A DNA stretch of 64,000 bases, from NCBI RefSeq assembly GCF_030684315.1, contig NC_081358.1:48714116-48778115 (forward strand), in the 5' to 3' direction. Shown here piece by piece: positions 1,862-40,890 of the stretch; the stretch's first letter is position 1, and each line of letters starts with the position of its first letter. Below the pieces are notes generated by a model. The model was given only the letters and a program-made list of their open reading frames with translations. It did no database searches and was not told the DNA's origin. The stretch is from Stegostoma tigrinum (lineage: Eukaryota). The position numbers and the translations under genes were made by a program.

Positions 1862-3837
1862 AACAAAGTATGGAGCTGGATGAACACAGCAGGCCAAGCA
1901 GCATCTTAGGACCACAAAAGCTGACATTTCGGGCCTAGACCTTTCATCAGAAAAGGGGGATGGGGAGAGGATTCAGAAATAAATAGGGAGAGAGGGGGAG
2001 GCAGACTGAAGATGGATAGAGGAAAAGATAGGTGGAGAGGAGAGTATTTGTGGTGAGGTAGGGAGGGGATAGGTCAGTCTGGGGAGGATGGACAAGTCAA
2101 GGGGGTGGGATGAGGCTAATAGGTTGGAAATGGAGGTGCAGTTTGAGGTGGGAGGAGGGGATAAGTGAGAGGAAGAACAGGTTATGGCGGTGGGAAAGAG
2201 CTGGGCTGGTTTTGGGATGCAGTGGAGGGAGGGGAGATTTTGAAGCTGGTGAAATCCACATTGATACCATTGGGCTGCAGGGTGCCCAAGCGGAATATGA
2301 GTTGCTGTTCCTGCAGCCTACGGGTGGCATCATTATGGCGCTGTAGGAGGCCCAGGATAGACATGTCGTCTAAGGAATGGGAGGGGGAGTTGAAATGGTT
2401 CATGACTGGGAGATGCAGTTGTTTATTGCGAACCGAGCGGAGGTGTTCTGCAAAGCGGTCCCCAAGCCTCCGCTTGGTTTCCCCAATGTAGAGGAAGCCA
2501 CACCGGGTACAATGGATACAGTATACCACATTGGCAGATGTGCAGGTGAACATGTGCTTGCTGTGGAAAGTCATCTTGGGGCCTGGGATGGGGGTGAGGG
2601 AGGAGGTGTGGGGGCAAGTGTAGCGGTTGCAGGAGAAAGTGACGAGTGTGGTGGGGTTGGAGTGGAAGGTGGAGCAGATAAGGGAGTCACGGAGAGAGTG
2701 GTCTCTCCGGAAGGCAGACAAGGGTGGGGATGGAAAAATGTTTTTAGTGGTGGGGTCGGATTGTAGATGGCAGAAATGTTGGAGGATGATGTGTTGTATC
2801 TGGAGGTAGGTGGGATGGTATGTGAGGACTAGGGGGATTCTCTTTTGGCGGTTGTGGCGGGGGCGGGGTGTGAGGGATGAGGTGTGGGGAATGCGGGAGA
2901 CATGGCCAAGGGCGTTCTCGACCACTGTGGGGGTGAAGTTGTGGTCCTTGAACGTGGACATCTGGGATGCACGGGAGTAAAATGCCTCATCCTGGGAGCA
3001 GATGCAGCGGAGATGAAAGAATTGGGAATGGGGATGGAATTTTTGCAGGAAGGTGGGTGGGAGGAGGTGTATTCCAGGTAGCTGTGGGAGTCGGTGGGCT
3101 TGAAATGGACATTGGTTTCGAGGTGGTTGTCTGAGGTGGAGACAGAGAGGTCCAGGAAGGTGAGAGATGTGTTGGAGATGGCCCAGGTGAACTTAAGGTT
3201 GGGGTGGAAGGTGTAGGTGAAGTGGATGAACTGTTCGAGCTCCTCTTGGGGGCACGAGGTGATGCTGATACAGTCATCAATGTAACGGAGGAAGAGGTGG
3301 AGTTTTGGGCCAGTGTAGGTGCAAAAGAGGGACTGTTCCACATAACCTACAAAGAGGCATATTCTGCTTGAGAACCCTACAGCCCAATGGTATCAATGTG
3401 GATTTCATCAACTTCAAAATCACCCATCCCCCCACTGCATCCCAAAACCACCCCAGCTCCTCCCAGTCTCCTTAACCTGTTCTTCCTCTCACCTATCCCC
3501 TCCTCCCACCTCAAGTCGCACCTCCATTTCCTACCTACTAACCCTCTTCTCGCCCCCTTGACCTGTCTGTCCTTCCCAGACTGGTCTACCCCCTCACTAC
3601 CTTCCCACCCATACTCTCCTCTCCACCTATCTTCTCCTCTATCCATCTTCGGTCCGCCTCCCCCTCTCTCCCTATTTATTGCAGAATCCTCTCCCCATCC
3701 CCCTTTTCTGATGAAGGGGCTAGGCCTGAAACGCCAGCTTTTATGCTCCTCTGATGCTGCTTGGCCTGCTGGGTTCATCCAGCTCCACACTTTATTATCT
3801 CAGATTCTCCAGCATCTGCAGTTCCCATTATCTCTGA
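1862..3837. mobile_element. Penelope-like element (probably Neptune-type), tail-out inverted insertion
   Basis: Minus arm ~1862-3358 (RT end + GIY-YIG + 3' tail) is joined to a plus-strand 3' fragment ~3359-3837. TSD TATCAACTGAATC(A/G)GC at 1844-1859 and 3838-3853. Confidence 0.92.
2182..3341 (-). pseudogene. Frameshifted PLE ORF: RT C-terminal part and GIY-YIG endonuclease
   Basis: ORF 2829-3341 has FLRYIDDC and HFKPTDSHSYL. ORF 2182-2961 has IPLVLTYHP, a Cys-containing linker and VYCIHCTRCGFLYIGETKRRLGDRFAEH. Confidence 0.92.
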
Positions 3838-16650: not shown

Positions 16651-18653
16651 TCTTCCTGTTGTTAACACATCCTTGCTCTTCACAAAATTAGTGTGGCACC
16701 CTCTGTCTGAAGTAGTTTCTTGGGTAAAAAGTCACAGTTTAGACCATATGGTCTAAGTATTGCCCTATATGTGACTTGATGTACTATATGCCACAAAGAT
16801 GAGGTTTTTATTTGAGATAGATGTCTTAAAAGTTTATTAATGATATTAACCATTTACATGTTGATAATATCATAGACCTAGATGTAGTCTCCATTCTGTG
16901 CTTTCTGATATTAGTGTAATGGTGCATACACATGCACAGAAACACAGGATAACTAAGCAACTATCCACCATCAACACTCACCCTGCACATACAGCAATGT
17001 TCTCCACTGAGGCAAATGATGGCCAAGCAGTGAGATGCTAGAGAGTTACTTCATCAGTGCTTTGACCTGAGCCTCCCCAGTCCATCTTCCATATTACTCG
17101 TCCAGCAGCAGCTCGATGGGTGTTGTCTCTGTATGTGCAGATGCCAGCAACACTGCAGATGGGGCCTTGTGATGTCAGTGATGCATGCACAGATGCTTTC
17201 TGCAGTTTATTACGGCCAGCTGACATCATACCCTGCTTCTCCACAAGTGGAGGCAGCCATTTTGTACATTTGATGTCACAATTACCTACTTTATGTTGCA
17301 CATACATATGAGTCGCTGAGAACTTAACTGAAGATAAGCAAGCACCTTTATATTGGGGCATCAGATGTCATGATATCATATAACTCTTAATGTAACAGCC
17401 TGTCTGATCTGAAATCCATGCAGTAATAATAAAACTCTACCTTTTTTCTGACTTCTAAATCATGTTAATGAAAGTAGGTTATCATTTTTTGTCCTAAAAG
17501 GACAAAGTTTGCTTTTTGTTCTAATGTTACACCATCCACTTCAATCTTTATTCTCATTTCTTTTAATGTTTTCTTTCTAGGCACCATTGTTTTTGTCTTT
17601 TTCTTTCCCTCCTTTATCCAATTGGAACACACATCAAAAGAACAGTTTCTTAAAATGTCACCTTATATTCCTGTCCGTGCTCTCATTTCAGTTTTTGATT
17701 TTCTTTGCTCATAAGATTATAAATGAGACTGATGTTTAGGATACCTGTTGACATTCCCAGAAAGTACAGACCTAATGCATCACTTTGGTAGTATTGGCAC
17801 ACAATTGTAATGATCTTCTCCTGTTTGTTATCTTAAGATAGGAGCTGATCTGATTATTTGAAAAGTGTGTTTTAAACAGGTTACCCACTTTCCTAAAGTA
17901 GGACAAACAAATTTCATATCAATACCTTAAGCTTTCTTCAGCTACTAATGCTATGTAATCTTTGCCTGAAGTGCTTGTCCTCATAACTTCTAACTTCAGT
18001 TCTAATTAAGTGCTTTCCATCTACCTGTAGTGAATGTAATGTTTGATTGAAAGTACCACCATTGAGGCAAAACCTCAAAGGAAAATTAGCACAGAGTAAA
18101 GAGTTGGTAGGAATGCCATCCTTTCTCCTTTATGTACATTATTTGATAGCTTCAAAAAGTTATGTTGAATGTAAAAAACAAACTATTTCCTGCAGTCATC
18201 ATGTAGCAAAAGTGTGTGCAAAATAACAAAATCAGGCAAAAATATATTTAGTGTGGTGAAGGATTATAACAATTATTAACTCAAGATTTGTTGTTACCAA
18301 GACTAATTACTGCCCCACTGGCTGCAAATATGTATTTGAGGCAAAATAAAGCCTTCAGTCCTCAGGTTGACTTACATGTAGTCTATGTTCTAGGCATAGA
18401 CTTTTTATTGTAGTGCTGCTTATTATGAAATGTTAACATATCATGGACCATGGAGCAAAAGCATGGAAGGAATTGAACAGCCCTTTCAATGAGCTGCACA
18501 AGCACATTGGGCCAATGGCCTTCTTCAATGCTGTATGGTTCAATTATTGAAAGTATTTTCTGGGCTGTTTTGGTTACAAAGGCCTTGCTCAACCTTCATT
18601 CTACAATATAAATAACTATAATACAAGGCAAGAGGACATAGGCTGAGTTGATA

Positions 18654-30759: not shown

Positions 30760-31400
30760 AGGAGGCATTTTCACTTCTACTGGTACGTCTACTGTCCACT
30801 ACAAATCTGGCTTCTTTCACTGATATTTCTGGAGCACTTATCTTTCCTTCCAGCTCATAAATACAAAAACAGAGAGGTTATGATGGATCCTTTATTAAGC
30901 ATTTGTTTGTCTTTGCATGGAACATTGTACCCATTCAAACTTTAGGAAAGATGTTAAAACCTGAGTGAAGATGTGGAAAATATTGACGAGAATGAATTTA
31001 AGGACGAGGGAGTTCAGTTATGTGAATAGACCAGGCAAGTTCTCCTTCGTGAAGTGAAAACTGCGAGAGATGTTCAAAACCAAGGGGGAGCCAGGCAGTC
31101 AGAATCTGTTCTCATTGATAGATGCAGTGAGAATTGCACAAATTTAAGGTGAATAGCAAAAGAACCAAAAATGACATGAGGAAAAACATTATGCAGTAAG
31201 TGGTTATGATCTGTAATGTGCTGCCTAGGACTCTGGTGAAGGCAGACTCAGTTGTAGTTATCGAAGGAGAGTTGCATAAGAGCCTTAAAGGAAAACATTT
31301 GCAGGTCTGTGGGGAAAAGCCAGCGACTAGTATTCAGTGAGTTCCATTCAGAGAGTTGACATGGACTTCAAAGGCCAAGGGACCTCCTTCTGCCATTCTA
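30760..31400 (+). mobile_element. Highly decayed CR1 LINE 3' portion
   Basis: AAATACAAAAACAGAGAGGTTATG and ATGCAGTAAGTGGTTATGATCTGTAATGTGCTGCCT motifs. Confidence 0.6.
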
Positions 31401-32272
31401 CCCTCCTCTTCACAAACTAGTGCAAACATCAAATAATCTTGGTGTATAATAAGTAATATAAAAATTGACATACAAGAGCATAATATCATCCTGTCAAAAA
31501 GAATTGCATAATGTGAAATAAACTAACACTTCAATAAAGAAAATGTACTGTCTTTCATGGTTTGTTGATCATTGGCAGAAATAAGGCTTGTGATGATCAG
31601 GTACAAAATGTGGGAATGTGAGCAGTCATTGACTCAATAGCTCCAAATGTTTAGTAATGTAAAGTTTCAATGCAGGATGAGATCATTGGTCCTGACATGT
31701 CAAAAGAAATTGGTGGAAATGACAAATCAAAGGGCAAAACCATGCAAAAAGATTTGAGAGTTCTGTGAAACACATGGCCACATCCTTCATCCACCAAACA
31801 CAGCAGTGAAGAATCAGTTACTGAGTTTAAAGATACCATTGGCAGCAAAGGACAGGAGAGAGAAGTCCCATGCCAAAGCATTTCATACAGGAATGAAAGA
31901 AAACAATTACTTAAGGACAATGATTCCAATTACAGTGAGTATTGGAACAAGGTATGAAAAGATACCAAATGTGTGTCCAAATACTCCTGACATGATGGTT
32001 AGAAAGAATTCAATAGTTGAGATAGCAGCATTAGTTAAGCCTGGCATTGCATCTACAATTGCTTGACAAATAACCCGAAGCTAATCTAAAGTTTGCCAAA
32101 TAATATTTAGTGCAACCCTCAGCACCAAAGGTTGCGCCCTTTTAACAGTCTCAGCAATTGGTAATTTGAGAAGCAATTCCATGCTATGCAACTGGATAAA
32201 GACTAACCAAGATAATAAAATGTGAGGCTGGATGAACACAGCAGGCCAAGCAGCATCTCAGGAGCACAAAAG

Positions 32273-32304
32273 CTGACGTTTCGGGCCTAGACCCTTCATC
32301 AGAG
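32273..32304 (-). ncRNA. Minimal hammerhead ribozyme motif (mirror of 33185-33216)
   Basis: Exact reverse complement of the plus-strand motif. Confidence 0.65.
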
Positions 32305-33184
32305 AGGGGGATGGGGGGAGGGAACTGGAATAAATAGGGAGAGAGGGGGAGGCGGACCGAAGATGGAGAGTAAAGAAGATAGGTGGAGAAGGTGTGGGTG
32401 GGGAGGTAGGGAGGGGATAGGTCAGTCCAGGGAAGACGGACAGGTCAAGGAGGTGGGATGAGGTTAGTAGGTAGCTGGGGGTGCGGCTTGGGGTGGGAGG
32501 AAGGGATGGGTGAGAGGAAGAACCGGTTAGGGAGGCAGAGACAGGTTGGACTGGTTTTGGGATGCAGTGGGTGGGGGGGAAGAGCTGGGCTGGTTGTGTG
32601 GTGCAGTGGGGGGAGGGGATGAACTGGGCTGGTTTAGGGATGCAGTGGGGGAAGGGGAGATTTTGAAACTGGTGAAGTCCACATTGATACCATATGGCTG
32701 CAGGGTTCCCAGGCGGAATATGAGTTGCTGTTCCTGCAACCTTGCAAGGTTGCAGGAACAGCAACTCATATTCCGCCTGGGAACCCTGCAGCCATATGGT
32801 ATCAATGTGGACTTCACCAGTTTCAAAATCTCCCCTTCCCCCACTGCATCCCTAAACCAGCCCAGTTCATCCCCTCCCCCCACTGCACCACACAACCAGC
32901 CCAGCTCTTCCCCCCCACCCACTGCATCCCAAAACCAGTCCAACCTGTCTCTGCCTCCCTAACCGGTTCTTCCTCTCACCCATCCCTTCCTCCCACCCCA
33001 AGCCGCACCCCCAGCTACCTACTAACCTCATCCCACCTCCTTGACCTGTCCGTCTTCCCTGGACTGACCTATCCCCTCCCTACCTCCCCACCCACACCTT
33101 CTCCACCTATCTTCTTTACTCTCCATCTTCGGTCCGCCTCCCCCTCTCTCCCTATTTATTCCAGTTCCCTCCCCCCATCCCCCT

Positions 33185-33216
33185 CTCTGATGAAGGGTCT
33201 AGGCCCGAAACGTCAG
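33185..33216 (+). ncRNA. Minimal type-I hammerhead ribozyme motif in PLE pLTR
   Basis: CT-CTGATGA-A-GGGT-CTAG-GCCC-GAAA-C-GTC-AG: intact CUGANGA/GAAA core, GUC triplet and palindromic ACGT at stem III. Stem I is only 2 bp. Confidence 0.68.
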
Positions 33217-35021
33217 CTTTTGTGCTCCTGAGATGCTGCTTGGCCTGCTGTGTTCATCCAGCCTCACATTTTATTATCTTGGAATCTCCAGCATCTGCAG
33301 TTCCCATTATCTCTAAAGACTAACCAAGTTTGCCAAAGATAATAGCTGTGTAAATGGCACTAGGGATGTAAGAAGTTCTGAATTGAGGGGATGTCACATT
33401 TTGAAGAATATGATTGTAACCCTGACATCCAAGATGGTGCCAGTGTTCAAGTTCCATTGTTGAAATTATAGTTAGAGTCTATCCAGAGGCAGCAAACCTG
33501 TTTCCATTGATTTAACATAAAAACAACTCCACTAATAGGAGGGAAGTTAGCTGAAGTGAGTGCATGTCCATGGATGCAAAATATCTCATGCAGTATCAGG
33601 AAATGTCATCCTGTTTAATGAAAGCTACAAAAGACTGCGTTAAGGTGCAACTGGTCTCTAACATTAGATTGGTAGATTGGGAAAAAAAGTGTTGTGAAAC
33701 ATCTCAGTGAAGGTCACAATCATAGAGGAGCTAGATCCTGTAACTGGGGCATGATCATGAATCTGTAAGACCTGTTGGTACAGTCTGGTACTTGGTTCAA
33801 TCCATCTCCAGTAACAAAGTAGTGATGTCCCACTTGTTCAAAGCATTGTCCACTGTGTGTTCTGATTTTGTTCACCAGAAGACATTTGTAAAGCAAATTG
33901 ACAGCTCTATAATTGTGCATCATAACACTGAGTTGGGTAACCAGTTCATACACATTATAAACTAAATTACATTCCAGGGATGTGGCCACAATTTTTGTAC
34001 TGAACTTAACTTGTGTAGTTCAACAGATAGAACTCTGTTATAATACAAGTGGCTGAGGCTGAGAGATGGGCTTAGTATCAAAAGGAAGTGGTGACTGAAA
34101 CAGTGTGGAGGATTACTGACATCTAACAAGTTATACTTATTTCTCAATCAAGCCTATATTTCTAACCAGATATTGTTGCACCATGCTGCAACCATACCAG
34201 GATTCTTCATAGGCACACTTCTCGCTTTCTCTTTTCTTGTCCCTCTCACAGAAGTGGACATGAATATCTGTACGTATTTAATCATGACTTGAAGAGATCA
34301 TTAAAAGAAGTATTTTTACTTTGCTACATGCTACATGAATGTTTCTTACTGTCTCACACAGATGTCAATGGATAAAAGAAGTATAATCAACCTAAACAGT
34401 TAGACTACATTTTCAAGATAAACATTAAAAAGTGACATAATTTAATCGGGATTACGTGTCACTGCATCCCCTTCAGAGAAAGAAAACTATTATATTATGG
34501 CATTCACAAAACATTACCACAAAGTTGGCTTGCCTCATTGTAGTAGCTCCTTTATGCCTAGTCTTGAAATTATCTGTATTGCCAGCCGATTTAACCGAGA
34601 GGATAAATGCATTATTCAGCAAGGAAAACAGTCTCACAACTCCTGCCATTGACCCATGCCTGCAGCATGAGACAGCAGGGCAACGTCTATAATCTGTGAG
34701 CATTCCCTGAGTTCGGGCAATCATTGATTGCACTATTCAGCCTCCACTTCACAATATGTTGTCTCTTTGTCAGCTGGAAAGAAGATTTATTCTCACAATT
34801 TCCAGCAACACAGGCCAGTTCCATGTCAGCAAATCCCTTGCTTCAGTGGCACGCTCATAATTAAAGGTGAGAGAGGGCCAATAAGGGAGGCGTTGAGAGT
34901 TATAGTTTTAAGAAATTGTGCAAAATGTTAATATGGCCAAAACAAGACATTGTAACTTCAAACAATCATTGACTTTATCACTGTTCAGGAACAACAGGAA
35001 GCATAAAAACCTGATGGGGAC

Positions 35022-35240: not shown

Positions 35241-35303
35241 AACTGTGTTTTGTTGTGCTTAATATATTCACATCGGAAAGAAACTGAGCTAGTTAATCCT
35301 CAA

Positions 35304-36079
35304 CCATTGCATCCGGTGTGGCTATATCTACATTGGGGAAACCAAGCGGAGGCTTGGGGACCGCTTTGCAGAACACCTCTGCTCGGTTCGCAACAAACAA
35401 CTGCACCTCCCAGTCGCAAACCATTTCCGCTCCCCCTCCCATTCCTCAGACGACATGTCCATCATGGGCCTCCTGCAGTGCCACAATGATGCCACCCGAA
35501 GGTTGCAGGAACAGCAACTCACATTCCGCTTGGGAACCCTGCAGCCCAATGGTATCAATGTGGACTTCACAAGCTTCAAAATCTCCCCTTTCCCCACTGC
35601 ATCCCAAAACCAGCCCAGTTCTTCCCCTCCACCCACTGCATCCCAAAACCAGCCCAGCTCGTCCCTTCCCCCCACTGCATCCCAAAACCAGCCCAGCTCA
35701 TCCCCTCCACCCACTGCATCCCAAAACCAGTCCAACCTGTCTCTGCCTCCCTAACCTGTTCTTCCTCTCACCCATCCCTTCCTCCCACCCCAAGCCGCAC
35801 CTCCATTTCCTACCTACTAACCTCATCCCACCTCCTTGACCTGTCCGTCTTCCCTGGACTGACCTATCCCCTCCCTACCTCCCCACCTATACTCTCCTCT
35901 CCACCTATCTTCTTTACTCTCCATCTTCGATCCGCCTCCCCCTCTCTCCCAATTTATTCCAGAACCCTCTCCCCGTCTCCCTCTCTGATGAAGGGTCTAG
36001 GCCAGAAACGTCAGCTTTTGTGCTCCTGAGATGCTGCTTGTCCTGCTGTGTTCATCCAGCTCCACACTTTGTTATCTTG
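35304..36079 (+). mobile_element. 5'-truncated PLE (GIY-YIG, 39-bp repeats, pLTR with hammerhead-like motif at ~35984-36015)
   Basis: HCIRCGYIYIGETKRRLGDRFAEH...EQQLTFRLGTLQPNGINVDF followed by the standard tail. No clear TSD seen. Confidence 0.92.
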
Positions 36080-36146
36080 ACAATCTATGGTGTAGCAGGA
36101 AGGCAACAAGAGGTATCAAGAAAGGTTGATGTACTCAGCTAAGATG

Positions 36147-38511: not shown

Positions 38512-39450
38512 TTTCTTTTATTTGAAAAAATATACTTTATTCATAAGATGTACAAAAAAAAACATATTTACACACCTACCCAGTCATGCAAGCCGCTCCG
38601 GGTTACCCAGGGGGTACATACACCAACTAAAGGAAAAAAAACAAAGAAGGAAAAGACAAAGCAAAGAAAATACCCCGGCAGTCGTCACCCCGCACAGTCC
38701 CAGTTGGCCTCCTGACCAGTTGGGGAAGGCGCCAGCTGGGCGCAGTTACCAGATAGGGCCCATTTTTCCATTCTGGACGAGGGGTTTCATACGGTGGTCT
38801 TTCCACACCGCGCCTTGGTGGCGGCTGCCCCAAGCTTTAGCGCGTCCCTCAGCACGTAGTCCTGGACCTTGGAGTGCGCCAGTCTGCAACACTCGGTCGG
38901 GGTCAGTTCTTTCAGCTGGCAGACCAGCAAGTTCCGGGCAGACCAAAGAGTGTCTTTCACCGCATTGATGGTGCTCCAGGCGCAGTTGATGTTGGTCTTG
39001 GTGTGCGTCCCGGGAAACAGCCCGTAGAGCACGGAGTCCCGTGTCACGGAGTTGCTCGGCACGAACCTCGACAAATACCACTGCATCCCCCTCCAGACCT
39101 CCTGCGCATAGGCACATCCAGAAGGAGGTGATCGACAGTCTCGTCCCCCCCTGCAGCCGCCTTGAGGGCAGTGTGCGGTGGCGCAGAGATTCCGGGCATG
39201 CATAAAGGATCTCACTGGCAGAGCCCCTCTCACCGCCAGCCAAGCAATGTTCTTGTGCTTGTTTGAAAGTTCTGGCGATGAGGCATTCTGCCAAACGATT
39301 TTGGCAGTCTGCATGGGGAACCACACGACGGGATCCACCCTCTCCTTTTCCCGAAGGGTCCTGAGGATACTACGTGCTGACCACTGCCTGACAGCCTTGT
39401 GGTCAAAGGTGTTTCCTTTCAAAAATTTCTCCACGAAGGACAGGTGGTGT
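38512..39450 (-). mobile_element. Tx1/L1-clade LINE 3' fragment (ORF2 C-terminal Cys-rich region, 3' UTR, A-rich tail)
   Basis: ORF 38787-39434: IVWQNASSPELSNKHKNIAWLAVRGALPVRSF...CPQGGC...VKDTLWSARN. Minus-strand AATAAA and A-rich end at ~38512-38552. GC/CpG-rich relative to the flanks. Confidence 0.88.
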
Positions 39451-39457
39451 GTTGGAT

Positions 39458-40890
39458 CTGCTTCTACGGACTACCAAAAATTCACAAACCAGGAGCCCCC
39501 CTCAGACCCATAGTGTCTCTACCTGGAACACCAACACACAGATTAGCCAAGGAACTACACCAAAGACTAAAACACCTAGTAGAAGACTCCCACCACGCCA
39601 TTCACTCCACCCAAGAATTCCTGAACACCATCAAAGACACCAAGATAGAAGAGGATGAAGTAATGGTCTCCTTTGATGTAACAGCCCTGTTCACATCCAT
39701 CAACATCAACCTGGCCAAGGAAACACTGACTGCACTATTAGAAGAACCGAAGACACATACACCAGACACCACCAACCTCATCAGCAAGGACAGCATCAAG
39801 CTAGTGGACCTATGGCTTACCACCCACTTCACTTTCAATAACAAAACCTACAGACAAACCAACGGTACACCCATGGGATCTCCGATATCAGGGTTCTTAG
39901 CAGAGGCAGTAATGCAGAGACTCGAACAAACAGCTCTGCCAATCATCCAACCCAAACTTTGGATCCGCTATGTGGATGACACCTTTGTCATCACTAAACA
40001 AAACAAATTAGAGGAAACCTTCAAGACCATCAATAATACCGTTACTGGCATAACATTCTCAAAAGAGGAGGAAAACAACAACAAACTGCCATTCCTAGAT
40101 GTCACAGTAGAGCGAACAGTCAATGGGGAACTTCAAACCAGTGTCTACAGGAAAACAACACATACGGACCAAATACTGAACTACAGGAGCAACCATCCCA
40201 ACACCCACAAACAAAGCTGCATTAGAACATTATTCCAACGAGTCACCACACACTGTAGCACAGAGGAACTACGAAGAGCAGAAGAAAATCACCTATACAG
40301 CGTATTCAAAAAGAACGGGTACCCTAGTCCGCCGATTTCTCAGCAACAAACCCAAACAAACAGACAAAATGGGCCCAGAAACCGTAACCACTCTCCCCTA
40401 CATCAAAGACATTTCCGAAATGACTGCCAGACTACTCGGACCCCTTGGCATCAGGGTAGCCCACAAACCCACCAACACACTAAAACAGCAGCTAATGAAC
40501 TTAAAAGACCCTATACAGACAACAAACAAAACAAACGTCATCTACAAAATACCTTGCAAGAACTGTGACAAACACTACATTGGATAAACAGGCAGGAAGC
40601 TAGCCACCAGAATACATGAACATCAACTAGCCACAAAACGACATGACTCACTATCACTCGTATCCTTACATACAGATGAGGAAGGACACCACTTTGATTG
40701 GGACAACACATCCATCCTAGGACAAGCCAAACAGAGACACGCACGAGAATTCCTAGAAACATGGCATTCCAACCGGAACTCCATCAACAAACACATTGAT
40801 TTGAAGCCAATCTACCATCCCCTGAGAAAAAGAACAGGAAACGACATCACCAACACAGGAAATGACATCACCAACCCAAGGCAACCTAAA
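39458..40890 (+). pseudogene. Poseidon-type PLE ORF (RT + GIY-YIG), 5' truncated, one frameshift and one stop
   Basis: FYGLPKIHK, PLRPIVS, SFDVTALFT, GTPMGSPISG, WIRYVDDTF, then VIYKIPCKNCDKHYIG*TGRKLATRIHEH. Confidence 0.95.

Follow-up and report, generated by a model that had tools for sequence, protein, structure and literature searches.

Foamy viruses (spumaretroviruses) are a model of virus–host co-divergence, the age of which rests mostly on pol. In cartilaginous fish, the foamy-like endogenous retroviruses (FLERVs) described include CmiFLERV of chimaera and ERV-Spuma.0-Sca of catshark. In the accessible text of the reports, to which all citations here are limited, only pol was detected in the C. 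milii FLERVs (PMC5512871), and shark and jawless-fish spuma elements were reported without Gag or Env domains (PMC10699275). The locus described here lies in a 64,000-nt stretch of Stegostoma tigrinum DNA (NC_081358.1:48714116-48778115, ‘the window’; genome 3.2 Gb, 835 contigs) and is very likely a non-coding, neutrally decaying env remnant of a foamy-type (spumaretroviral) endogenous retrovirus (ERV), without current function. The family to which it belongs resembles the chimaera and catshark elements in carrying a spuma-clade reverse transcriptase (RT), and the catshark protein P0065 falls in the same clade; unlike in those elements, as far as these reports go, env is recognisable.

Endogenous foamy viruses (EFVs) of amphibians and coelacanth (NviFLERV-1, CoeEFV, ERV-Spuma-Rbi/Smu/Ame) share with this family the order long terminal repeat (LTR)-pol-env-short 3′ region-LTR and Foamy_virus_ENV, which amphibian EFVs carry according to a report leaving sharks unmentioned (bioRxiv 2020.12.18.423569), but they are far better preserved, with Gag_spuma. 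NviFLERV-1 has 492 nt between env and the 3′ LTR (PMC5512871), compared with ~480 nt here. Teleost FLERVs (AciFLERV, DrFV, Poecilia P0051) are alike in their spuma-like RT, 4-nt target duplications and G-rich polypurine tract (PPT)/LTR border (duplications and border, PMC5210030), but lie outside the clade of the shark RTs, and DrFV env reportedly lacks homology to foamy Env (PMC10699275). Gamma-type Env occurs in cartilaginous fish (bioRxiv 2021.11.23.469661). A foamy-type env in these fish is undescribed in the accessible text of PMC5512871, PMC10699275, PMC4422223, PMC5210030, PMC6001957, PMC6955096 and both bioRxiv manuscripts (supplements, subscription journals and repeat databases were outside the scope), so that ‘unreported’ is provisional; what appears to be new, with the same proviso, is env in a cartilaginous-fish foamy-like family, pol-only elements being already known.

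Mammalian spumaretrovirus Env (PF03408; PDB 8ozh) shares with the locus a membrane-proximal/anchor block with short tail. Among other copies of the family, one (on contig C36) adds a cysteine cluster with CGN in the transmembrane subunit (TM) and another (on C10) a basic site with what may be a fusion-peptide pattern after it, and the long LTR and 4-bp target duplication are also alike. The family differs in that RT identity is only ~28-34%, Env identity is barely detectable and all copies are broken; the window copy is short of over half of TM, and no gag, primer-binding site (PBS) or Bel was detected.

Env block, pol and related copies

The block lies on the minus strand at 32209-31886, a single reading frame containing two stops (32081-32083 and 31907-31909), with a hydrophobic membrane anchor (31913-31969) and an end stop at 31883-31885. 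With X at the stops, it matches Pfam Foamy_virus_ENV (PF03408) at 885-967 of 982 (26.1 bits, E 2.3e-6), foamy being the sole Pfam family matched, and its top PDB match is foamy Env (8ozh, E 5.4e-4). Retroviral profiles were also built from 32 retroviral loci identified via a primer-binding-site motif, 16 foamy genomes being taken from among these. When the window and seven paralogue regions were tiled in six frames, no Env domain scored higher than the block (24.4 bits), where the betaretroviral Env profile gave 3.6 bits; profiles of beta- and lentiviral Env both stayed under 4 bits there, and the block was not in the lentiviral top 8. Aligned to Env with frameshifts allowed, the block scored 51.7; 25 shuffles reached 27.2 at most. 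We hold with high confidence that this is a real foamy-type env fossil. An earlier note, made from the letters alone, had proposed a foamy env relic hidden by stops, frameshifts and an insertion, with a TAG at 32081-32083; the block and its profile match bear this out, the stop is where it was placed, and no better non-foamy match was seen in Pfam or PDB.

Other searches added little. A 42-aa piece of the block gave no usable match in the ESM Atlas, and PF03408 run over the whole genome gave no match under a stricter filter, with controls equally unmatched. The foamy Env alignment search covered 33 proteins (30 named mammalian foamy Env and three unnamed with PF03408) and no fish or amphibian Env.

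Seven further env-bearing copies were identified, on contigs C43, C13, C2, C4, C36, C10 and C1 (contig names of the genome serve as copy labels below), giving at least eight with the window; LTR copies number at least 32, and both figures are minima. Judged by sequence, the locus is a member of a multi-copy endogenous family with TG..CA LTRs and not a lone orphan. Scores exceeded those of shuffles for C36 (60.7 vs maximum 24.9 of 6 shuffles; Env profile 608-958), C10 (36.4 vs 25.8; 494-935) and C43 (33.6 vs 23.7). In C36 the foamy TM cysteine cluster, with its terminal CGN, is retained (score 46.0, with 18.8 the highest of 40 shuffles; hhalign E 5e-4). The window copy, C4, C13, C2, C43 and C1 form one subgroup, with mostly 62-71% mutual identity (C1 57-64%), and C36 and C10 another, mostly 52-60% identical to the first.

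Upstream of env, C10 (99.0) and C13 (69.0; shuffle maxima under 24, 4 shuffles each) carry foamy-like pol, and C13 also matches RNase H and the start of integrase (48.7 vs 24.1). C10 RT has its highest identity with mammalian foamy RT (28-34%; ortho/gypsy 13-22%). An RT tree was built from C10 and C13 (not the window copy) and 30 reference rows, without coelacanth, ERV-L or snakehead-type rows. C10 and C13 are sisters (Shimodaira–Hasegawa-like approximate likelihood ratio test/ultrafast bootstrap, SH-aLRT/UFBoot, 93/97). The clade that holds them (90/96) also comprises mammalian foamy viruses, a newt element and a catshark RT, and leaves out two teleost-type FLERV rows. The earlier note had suggested a phylogeny of Env; the grouping with foamy viruses is seen here in RT, for C10 and C13 only among the family copies.

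One more RT match, 41% identical to the C10 RT piece, lies at C11:39889734-39889949 and is possibly another pol-bearing copy. P0065, from Scyliorhinus torazame, is annotated as a PR/SET-domain protein and also has an RT domain, which falls in the foamy clade; against the genome it gave RT matches of only 21-36%, plus two of 41-49% elsewhere in the protein. Either a gene model fused over an ERV or a genuine capture could account for it.

Anatomy of the window copy

From the 5′ side of the element, the features are as follows (SU, surface subunit).

34222..34233, minus strand: KRKR, a chance motif in host flank, outside the element (upstream of the LTR start, in single-copy DNA)
34121..34180, minus strand: first ~60 nt of the family LTR, with TG start at 34180-34179 (LTR profile positions 12-75, E 5e-16)
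33700..34130, minus strand: internal family segment, possibly the env 5′ region (leader/SU N-terminus), aligning to C4 17413+ and C13 17905+
33490..33699, minus strand: likely SU C-terminus, degenerate SU/TM cleavage homologue (33581-33592) and start of the fusion peptide (subgroup profile to C10)
33329..33489, minus strand: TM C-terminal ectodomain, after a ~700-nt deletion, aligning to C36 18630+ and C10 17971+
33314..33328, no strand: target-site duplication, copy 2, 15 bp (identical 15-mers)
32212..33313, no strand: young insertion, presumably Penelope-like (perfect inverted arms 32207-32744 and 32745-33282 plus short tail)
32197..32211, no strand: target-site duplication, copy 1, 15 bp, part of env (identical 15-mers)
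31883..32211, minus strand: TM membrane-proximal region, membrane anchor (31913-31969) and short tail, with two internal stops (Env profile block)
31401..31882, minus strand: ~480-nt 3′ internal region in the position of foamy accessory genes (tas/bet), ending in the PPT (31401-31411)
31000..31399, plus strand: unrelated repeat fragment adjoining the purine tract (by sequence), which we take to be a CR1-like 3′ end

A genome search with 33329-34300 gave 34 matches: the locus itself, one env paralogue and 32 copies of 34121-34180, all beginning at the same TG and with unrelated flanks. The LTR profile matches the window at 34121-34180 only; no more of the 5′ LTR is present there, and PBS, gag and pol are missing too. 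In C2, C1 and C43 this LTR is found on the downstream side of env, after a purine tract. Matches to profile positions ~1000-1200 were discarded as a Penelope-like piece within one training copy. The earlier note had recognised no LTR nearby, and the LTR start falls inside the interval that it assigned to env. It had also read the KRKR, truly present at 34222-34233, as a furin-type site. This motif belongs to host flank because it precedes the LTR start and sits in DNA that occurs once in the genome (34185-34900) and is unmatched by paralogues (34185-34500, which holds it, gave no match above shuffles in any of 7 regions); in a second species, 5 nt are absent at 34230, disrupting KRKR.

The complete family LTR is ~1.3-1.4 kb, copies sharing 1.2-1.5 kb past the start seen in the window. 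Both ends were found in seven of eight solo LTRs examined (8 of 12 fetched; 1227-2072 nt including insertions), and in these seven flanks matched at 18/28 positions for a 4-bp target duplication, compared with 6/21, 6/35 and 10/42 at 3, 5 and 6 bp; one solo-LTR end is ambiguous, with the same 4-bp score either way. Purine tracts precede the downstream LTR in family copies. No copy was found with its 5′ LTR end joined to internal sequence, and no PBS (tRNA-Lys1,2 or -Asn in foamy viruses) was located. Foamy Gag (Gag_spuma) has no CCHC fingers, and Pol is separate from it; the gag profile reached at best only 4.3 bits in the window and seven 20-30 kb regions, the copies possibly being deleted or too decayed. 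An 88% direct repeat around C10, considered as an LTR pair, is a common non-LTR repeat. In the C10 provirus, a ~730-nt internal piece (C10 ~76573519-76574252) is inverted and bounded by 53-nt inverted repeats (94% identical).

The 33700-34130 segment is joined to the LTR piece across an overlap of ~10 nt (34121-34131). In the longer copies C36 (E 7e-5) and C10 (E 1.2e-4, within the inverted piece), part of this segment corresponds to sequence located far upstream, which implies a second deletion. Its hydrophobic stretch is in the same frame in 3/3 copies, and the segment may be the env 5′ region (leader/SU N-terminus), although it gave no significant score against foamy env-N or pol-C profiles; with regard to a foamy leader (WXXW motif, LP/SU furin site), the analysis gave nothing beyond the common hydrophobic stretch. 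A subgroup profile maps 33700-33485 onto C10 17083-17287 (E 3e-5 to 1e-6), where IKRR at 17174 precedes sequence that is in register with the foamy fusion peptide. Between this IKRR and the anchor block lie ~335 codons, compared with 319 in the foamy profile, and the cleavage/fusion-peptide assignment scored 21.5 vs a maximum of 19.2 in 100 shuffles, with hhalign E only 0.27. The next ~700 nt of TM ectodomain, including the cysteine cluster, are missing from the window copy, leaving ~190 of ~417 TM codons; the gap is shared by C4, C13 and C2, and C4 crosses it directly (C10 17247 to 17968). From these alignments, the relic appears to be a deletion derivative consisting of an upstream piece, the SU end, a degenerate cleavage site with fusion peptide, the ~700-nt gap and the TM C-terminus.

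The 3′ internal region (31401-31882) is 66-70% identical to C2, C43 and C1, which run on into the LTR, and has no open frame above 76 codons; Bel1/Bel2 profiles stayed under 7 bits in the window and paralogue regions, with no match in 31401-31882. The 3′ LTR is absent, with no family-LTR profile match on the 31000-31399 side of the window. Pfam scans of raw frames, covering upstream pieces and C2/C10, gave no retroviral gag, pol or env match. Whole-region alignments with permissive scoring fell in the linear regime and were replaced by stricter ones.

Decay, proposed history and alternative readings

Pairwise mismatch at codon positions 1/2/3 is 0.395/0.393/0.348 over eight copies, with no third-position excess. 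Copies of the window subgroup differ from the majority of the others by 18-24%, C1, C36 and C10 by 31-33%, and 14 LTRs by a mean of 19.5%, a pattern that, on the alignments, indicates neutral decay after a burst. For the second species, nine runs from three studies, with 7% of the words shared, were available, and one run per study was used for contigs, which cover the env piece, LTR junction and flank; no RNA dataset was listed, a result without bearing on expression. One 4151-nt contig spans 33314-34900, from which it differs by 110 substitutions and 18 gap positions (~7%), and four indels within the env part change the frame between the species; an orthologous locus, which the earlier note had suggested looking for, is therefore present. 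Since the LTR junction is orthologous, integration and the LTR-env deletion predate the species split. The family would be ~5-6 times older than that split, because copies differ by 18-20% vs 3.5% per lineage, assuming a constant rate and identical starting copies.

The proposed history starts with germ-line infection by a foamy-type virus. An internally deleted variant (window, C4, C13, C2) would then have spread, having lost ~700 nt of the TM ectodomain and probably a large part of SU; it was presumably fusion-incompetent and copied by helper proteins. In the window copy, about base 60 of the LTR now adjoins internal sequence at the ~10-nt overlap, presumably through a further deletion, and the 3′ LTR, absent beside the other repeat at 31399, would have been lost there. 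The palindromic Penelope-like insertion would have followed after the split from the second species.

Several results weigh against a foamy-type env remnant. The window’s PF03408 score of 26.1 bits is narrowly under the curated cut-off of 27 and concerns the C-terminal block only; this block had 0 matches at E<=0.001 among 1.84 billion representative proteins and no matches in a 5.8-billion protein set, and its similarity to Env is, on such comparisons, remote. Env profile scores are at shuffle level in four of the seven paralogues (C13, C4, C2, C1), none of six paralogue pieces (five env, one RT) matched a foamy or RT Pfam family, foamy Env was not found with two paralogue env pieces searched against PDB, and phmmer missed the C36 motif. 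The window’s own pairwise alignment to the C10 cleavage region is marginal (37.6 vs 37.5), support coming from the group profile. In the RT tree, internal supports among foamy-like rows are low and the order inside the clade is not settled. No gag, PBS, complete 5′ LTR or Bel was found in the window or family copies. Finally, window 34120-33760 scored 25.9 against TM profile 650-800, above all 50 shuffles (0/50 reach it), which fits a different arrangement, that of the earlier note.

That arrangement, a colinear and near-complete foamy TM running from KRKR (34222-34233) to the tail, could also draw on a frameshift-aware joint path over profile 690-969 (34016 to 31913), but is highly improbable. 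KRKR is outside the element, paralogue alignments put the cleavage site near 33581-33592 and cross the ~700-nt gap, and no slice of 34125-33765 matches the C36/C10 ectodomain. Taken alone, the upstream flank is not significant (25.9 vs shuffle maximum 30.0, frameshift-aware; no foamy Pfam match), and the ‘essentially whole TM’ with seven colinear motifs is not upheld. The 34120-33760 score is treated as probably chance because homologous stretches of C4 and C13 fail to reproduce it (23/50 and 24/50 shuffles reach theirs) and because it was one of many sub-profile tests; it is the likely source of the note’s extra motifs. The window copy is not a complete foamy TM (~417 codons, heptad repeats, cysteine cluster), and the note’s ~407-codon length is a coincidence in a deletion derivative. 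We consider it very improbable that the short form was instead a lineage of its own, or a ‘mini-Env’ (leader, stub SU, fusion peptide, anchor) at one time under selection and later lost, a reading for which the gap shared by four copies, the closeness of these and C43 and C1 to one another rather than to C36/C10, and the in-frame hydrophobic N-terminal stretch (3/3 copies) could be cited. The copies show no third-position excess, every one has stops and frameshifts, and a class I fusion protein requires a heptad core, which is missing here.

Weak scores, a hydrophobic block and a recorded frog class III ERV with a class I env (PMC8278194) would also suit a class III or gypsy-like element with a non-foamy or captured membrane protein, the foamy match then being generic amphipathic/transmembrane similarity. 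We give this scarcely any credence: foamy is the sole Pfam family and top PDB match, beta- and lentiviral Env profiles stay under 4 bits, C36 has the independent cysteine/CGN motif at a colinear distance, and C10 RT is closest to mammalian foamy RT. A co-opted env gene, which would need an open frame under purifying selection, is not supported, given the stops, frameshifts, insertion and frame-changing indels between species, and no codon-position bias was found. The locus, read as a foamy-type env remnant, is a dead fossil with no functional consequence for the host. We put at about even chances a broader proposal: that this is the first recognisable true foamy-type Env in cartilaginous fish; that its family’s RT is nearer to tetrapod foamy viruses than teleost FLERVs are, so that sharks already had the distinctive fusion protein of foamy viruses at a date several times older than the divergence of the two species, whether by descent from the jawed-vertebrate ancestor or by an ancient cross-class jump; and that the majority of the remaining copies represent a deletion variant that was amplified. 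Found together with LTR and RT, orthologous in two species and much older than their divergence, an env bearing foamy hallmarks would add the deepest host class to Env evolution and give an orthology-based calibration point.

Penelope-like insertion and other elements

The old, unannotated relic is split, as the earlier note had it, by a 1.1-kb insertion (32212-33313) between identical 15-mers (32197-32211 and 33314-33328). The arms are 538 nt each and 100% complementary, with near-identical copies elsewhere in the genome. C43 is colinear across the 32197-32211 point, without insertion. In the second species, the alignment of two contigs begins precisely at 33314, and a further 2292 bases show no match to the insertion tail; the insertion is likely absent there. 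Assembly artefact is an unlikely source of the palindrome, given the 15-bp duplication, a read contig over the right junction and a second palindromic Penelope-like copy on C1 (near 145607725-145608542) with its own 10-bp duplication. Both insertions have the layout duplication, inverted arm, arm, tail, duplication, with no spacer, which points to a fold-back step in the course of insertion. The Penelope-like repeat recurs at window 35300-36080, and a GIY-YIG-bearing open frame is found at 2185-3192 (minus strand; E 7e-4).

Elsewhere in the window, non-LTR pieces include a 395-codon RT open frame (39381-40565, plus strand; PF00078, E 3e-13) and a zf-RVT match (38790-39470, minus strand). LTR-type RT matches with long open frames were found at C15:63728884 and C33:37455257 and on unplaced contigs C73, C432, C443, C474, C529 and C832. 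These are probably young LTR elements of other families; several of the unplaced-contig matches are near-identical and on small contigs.

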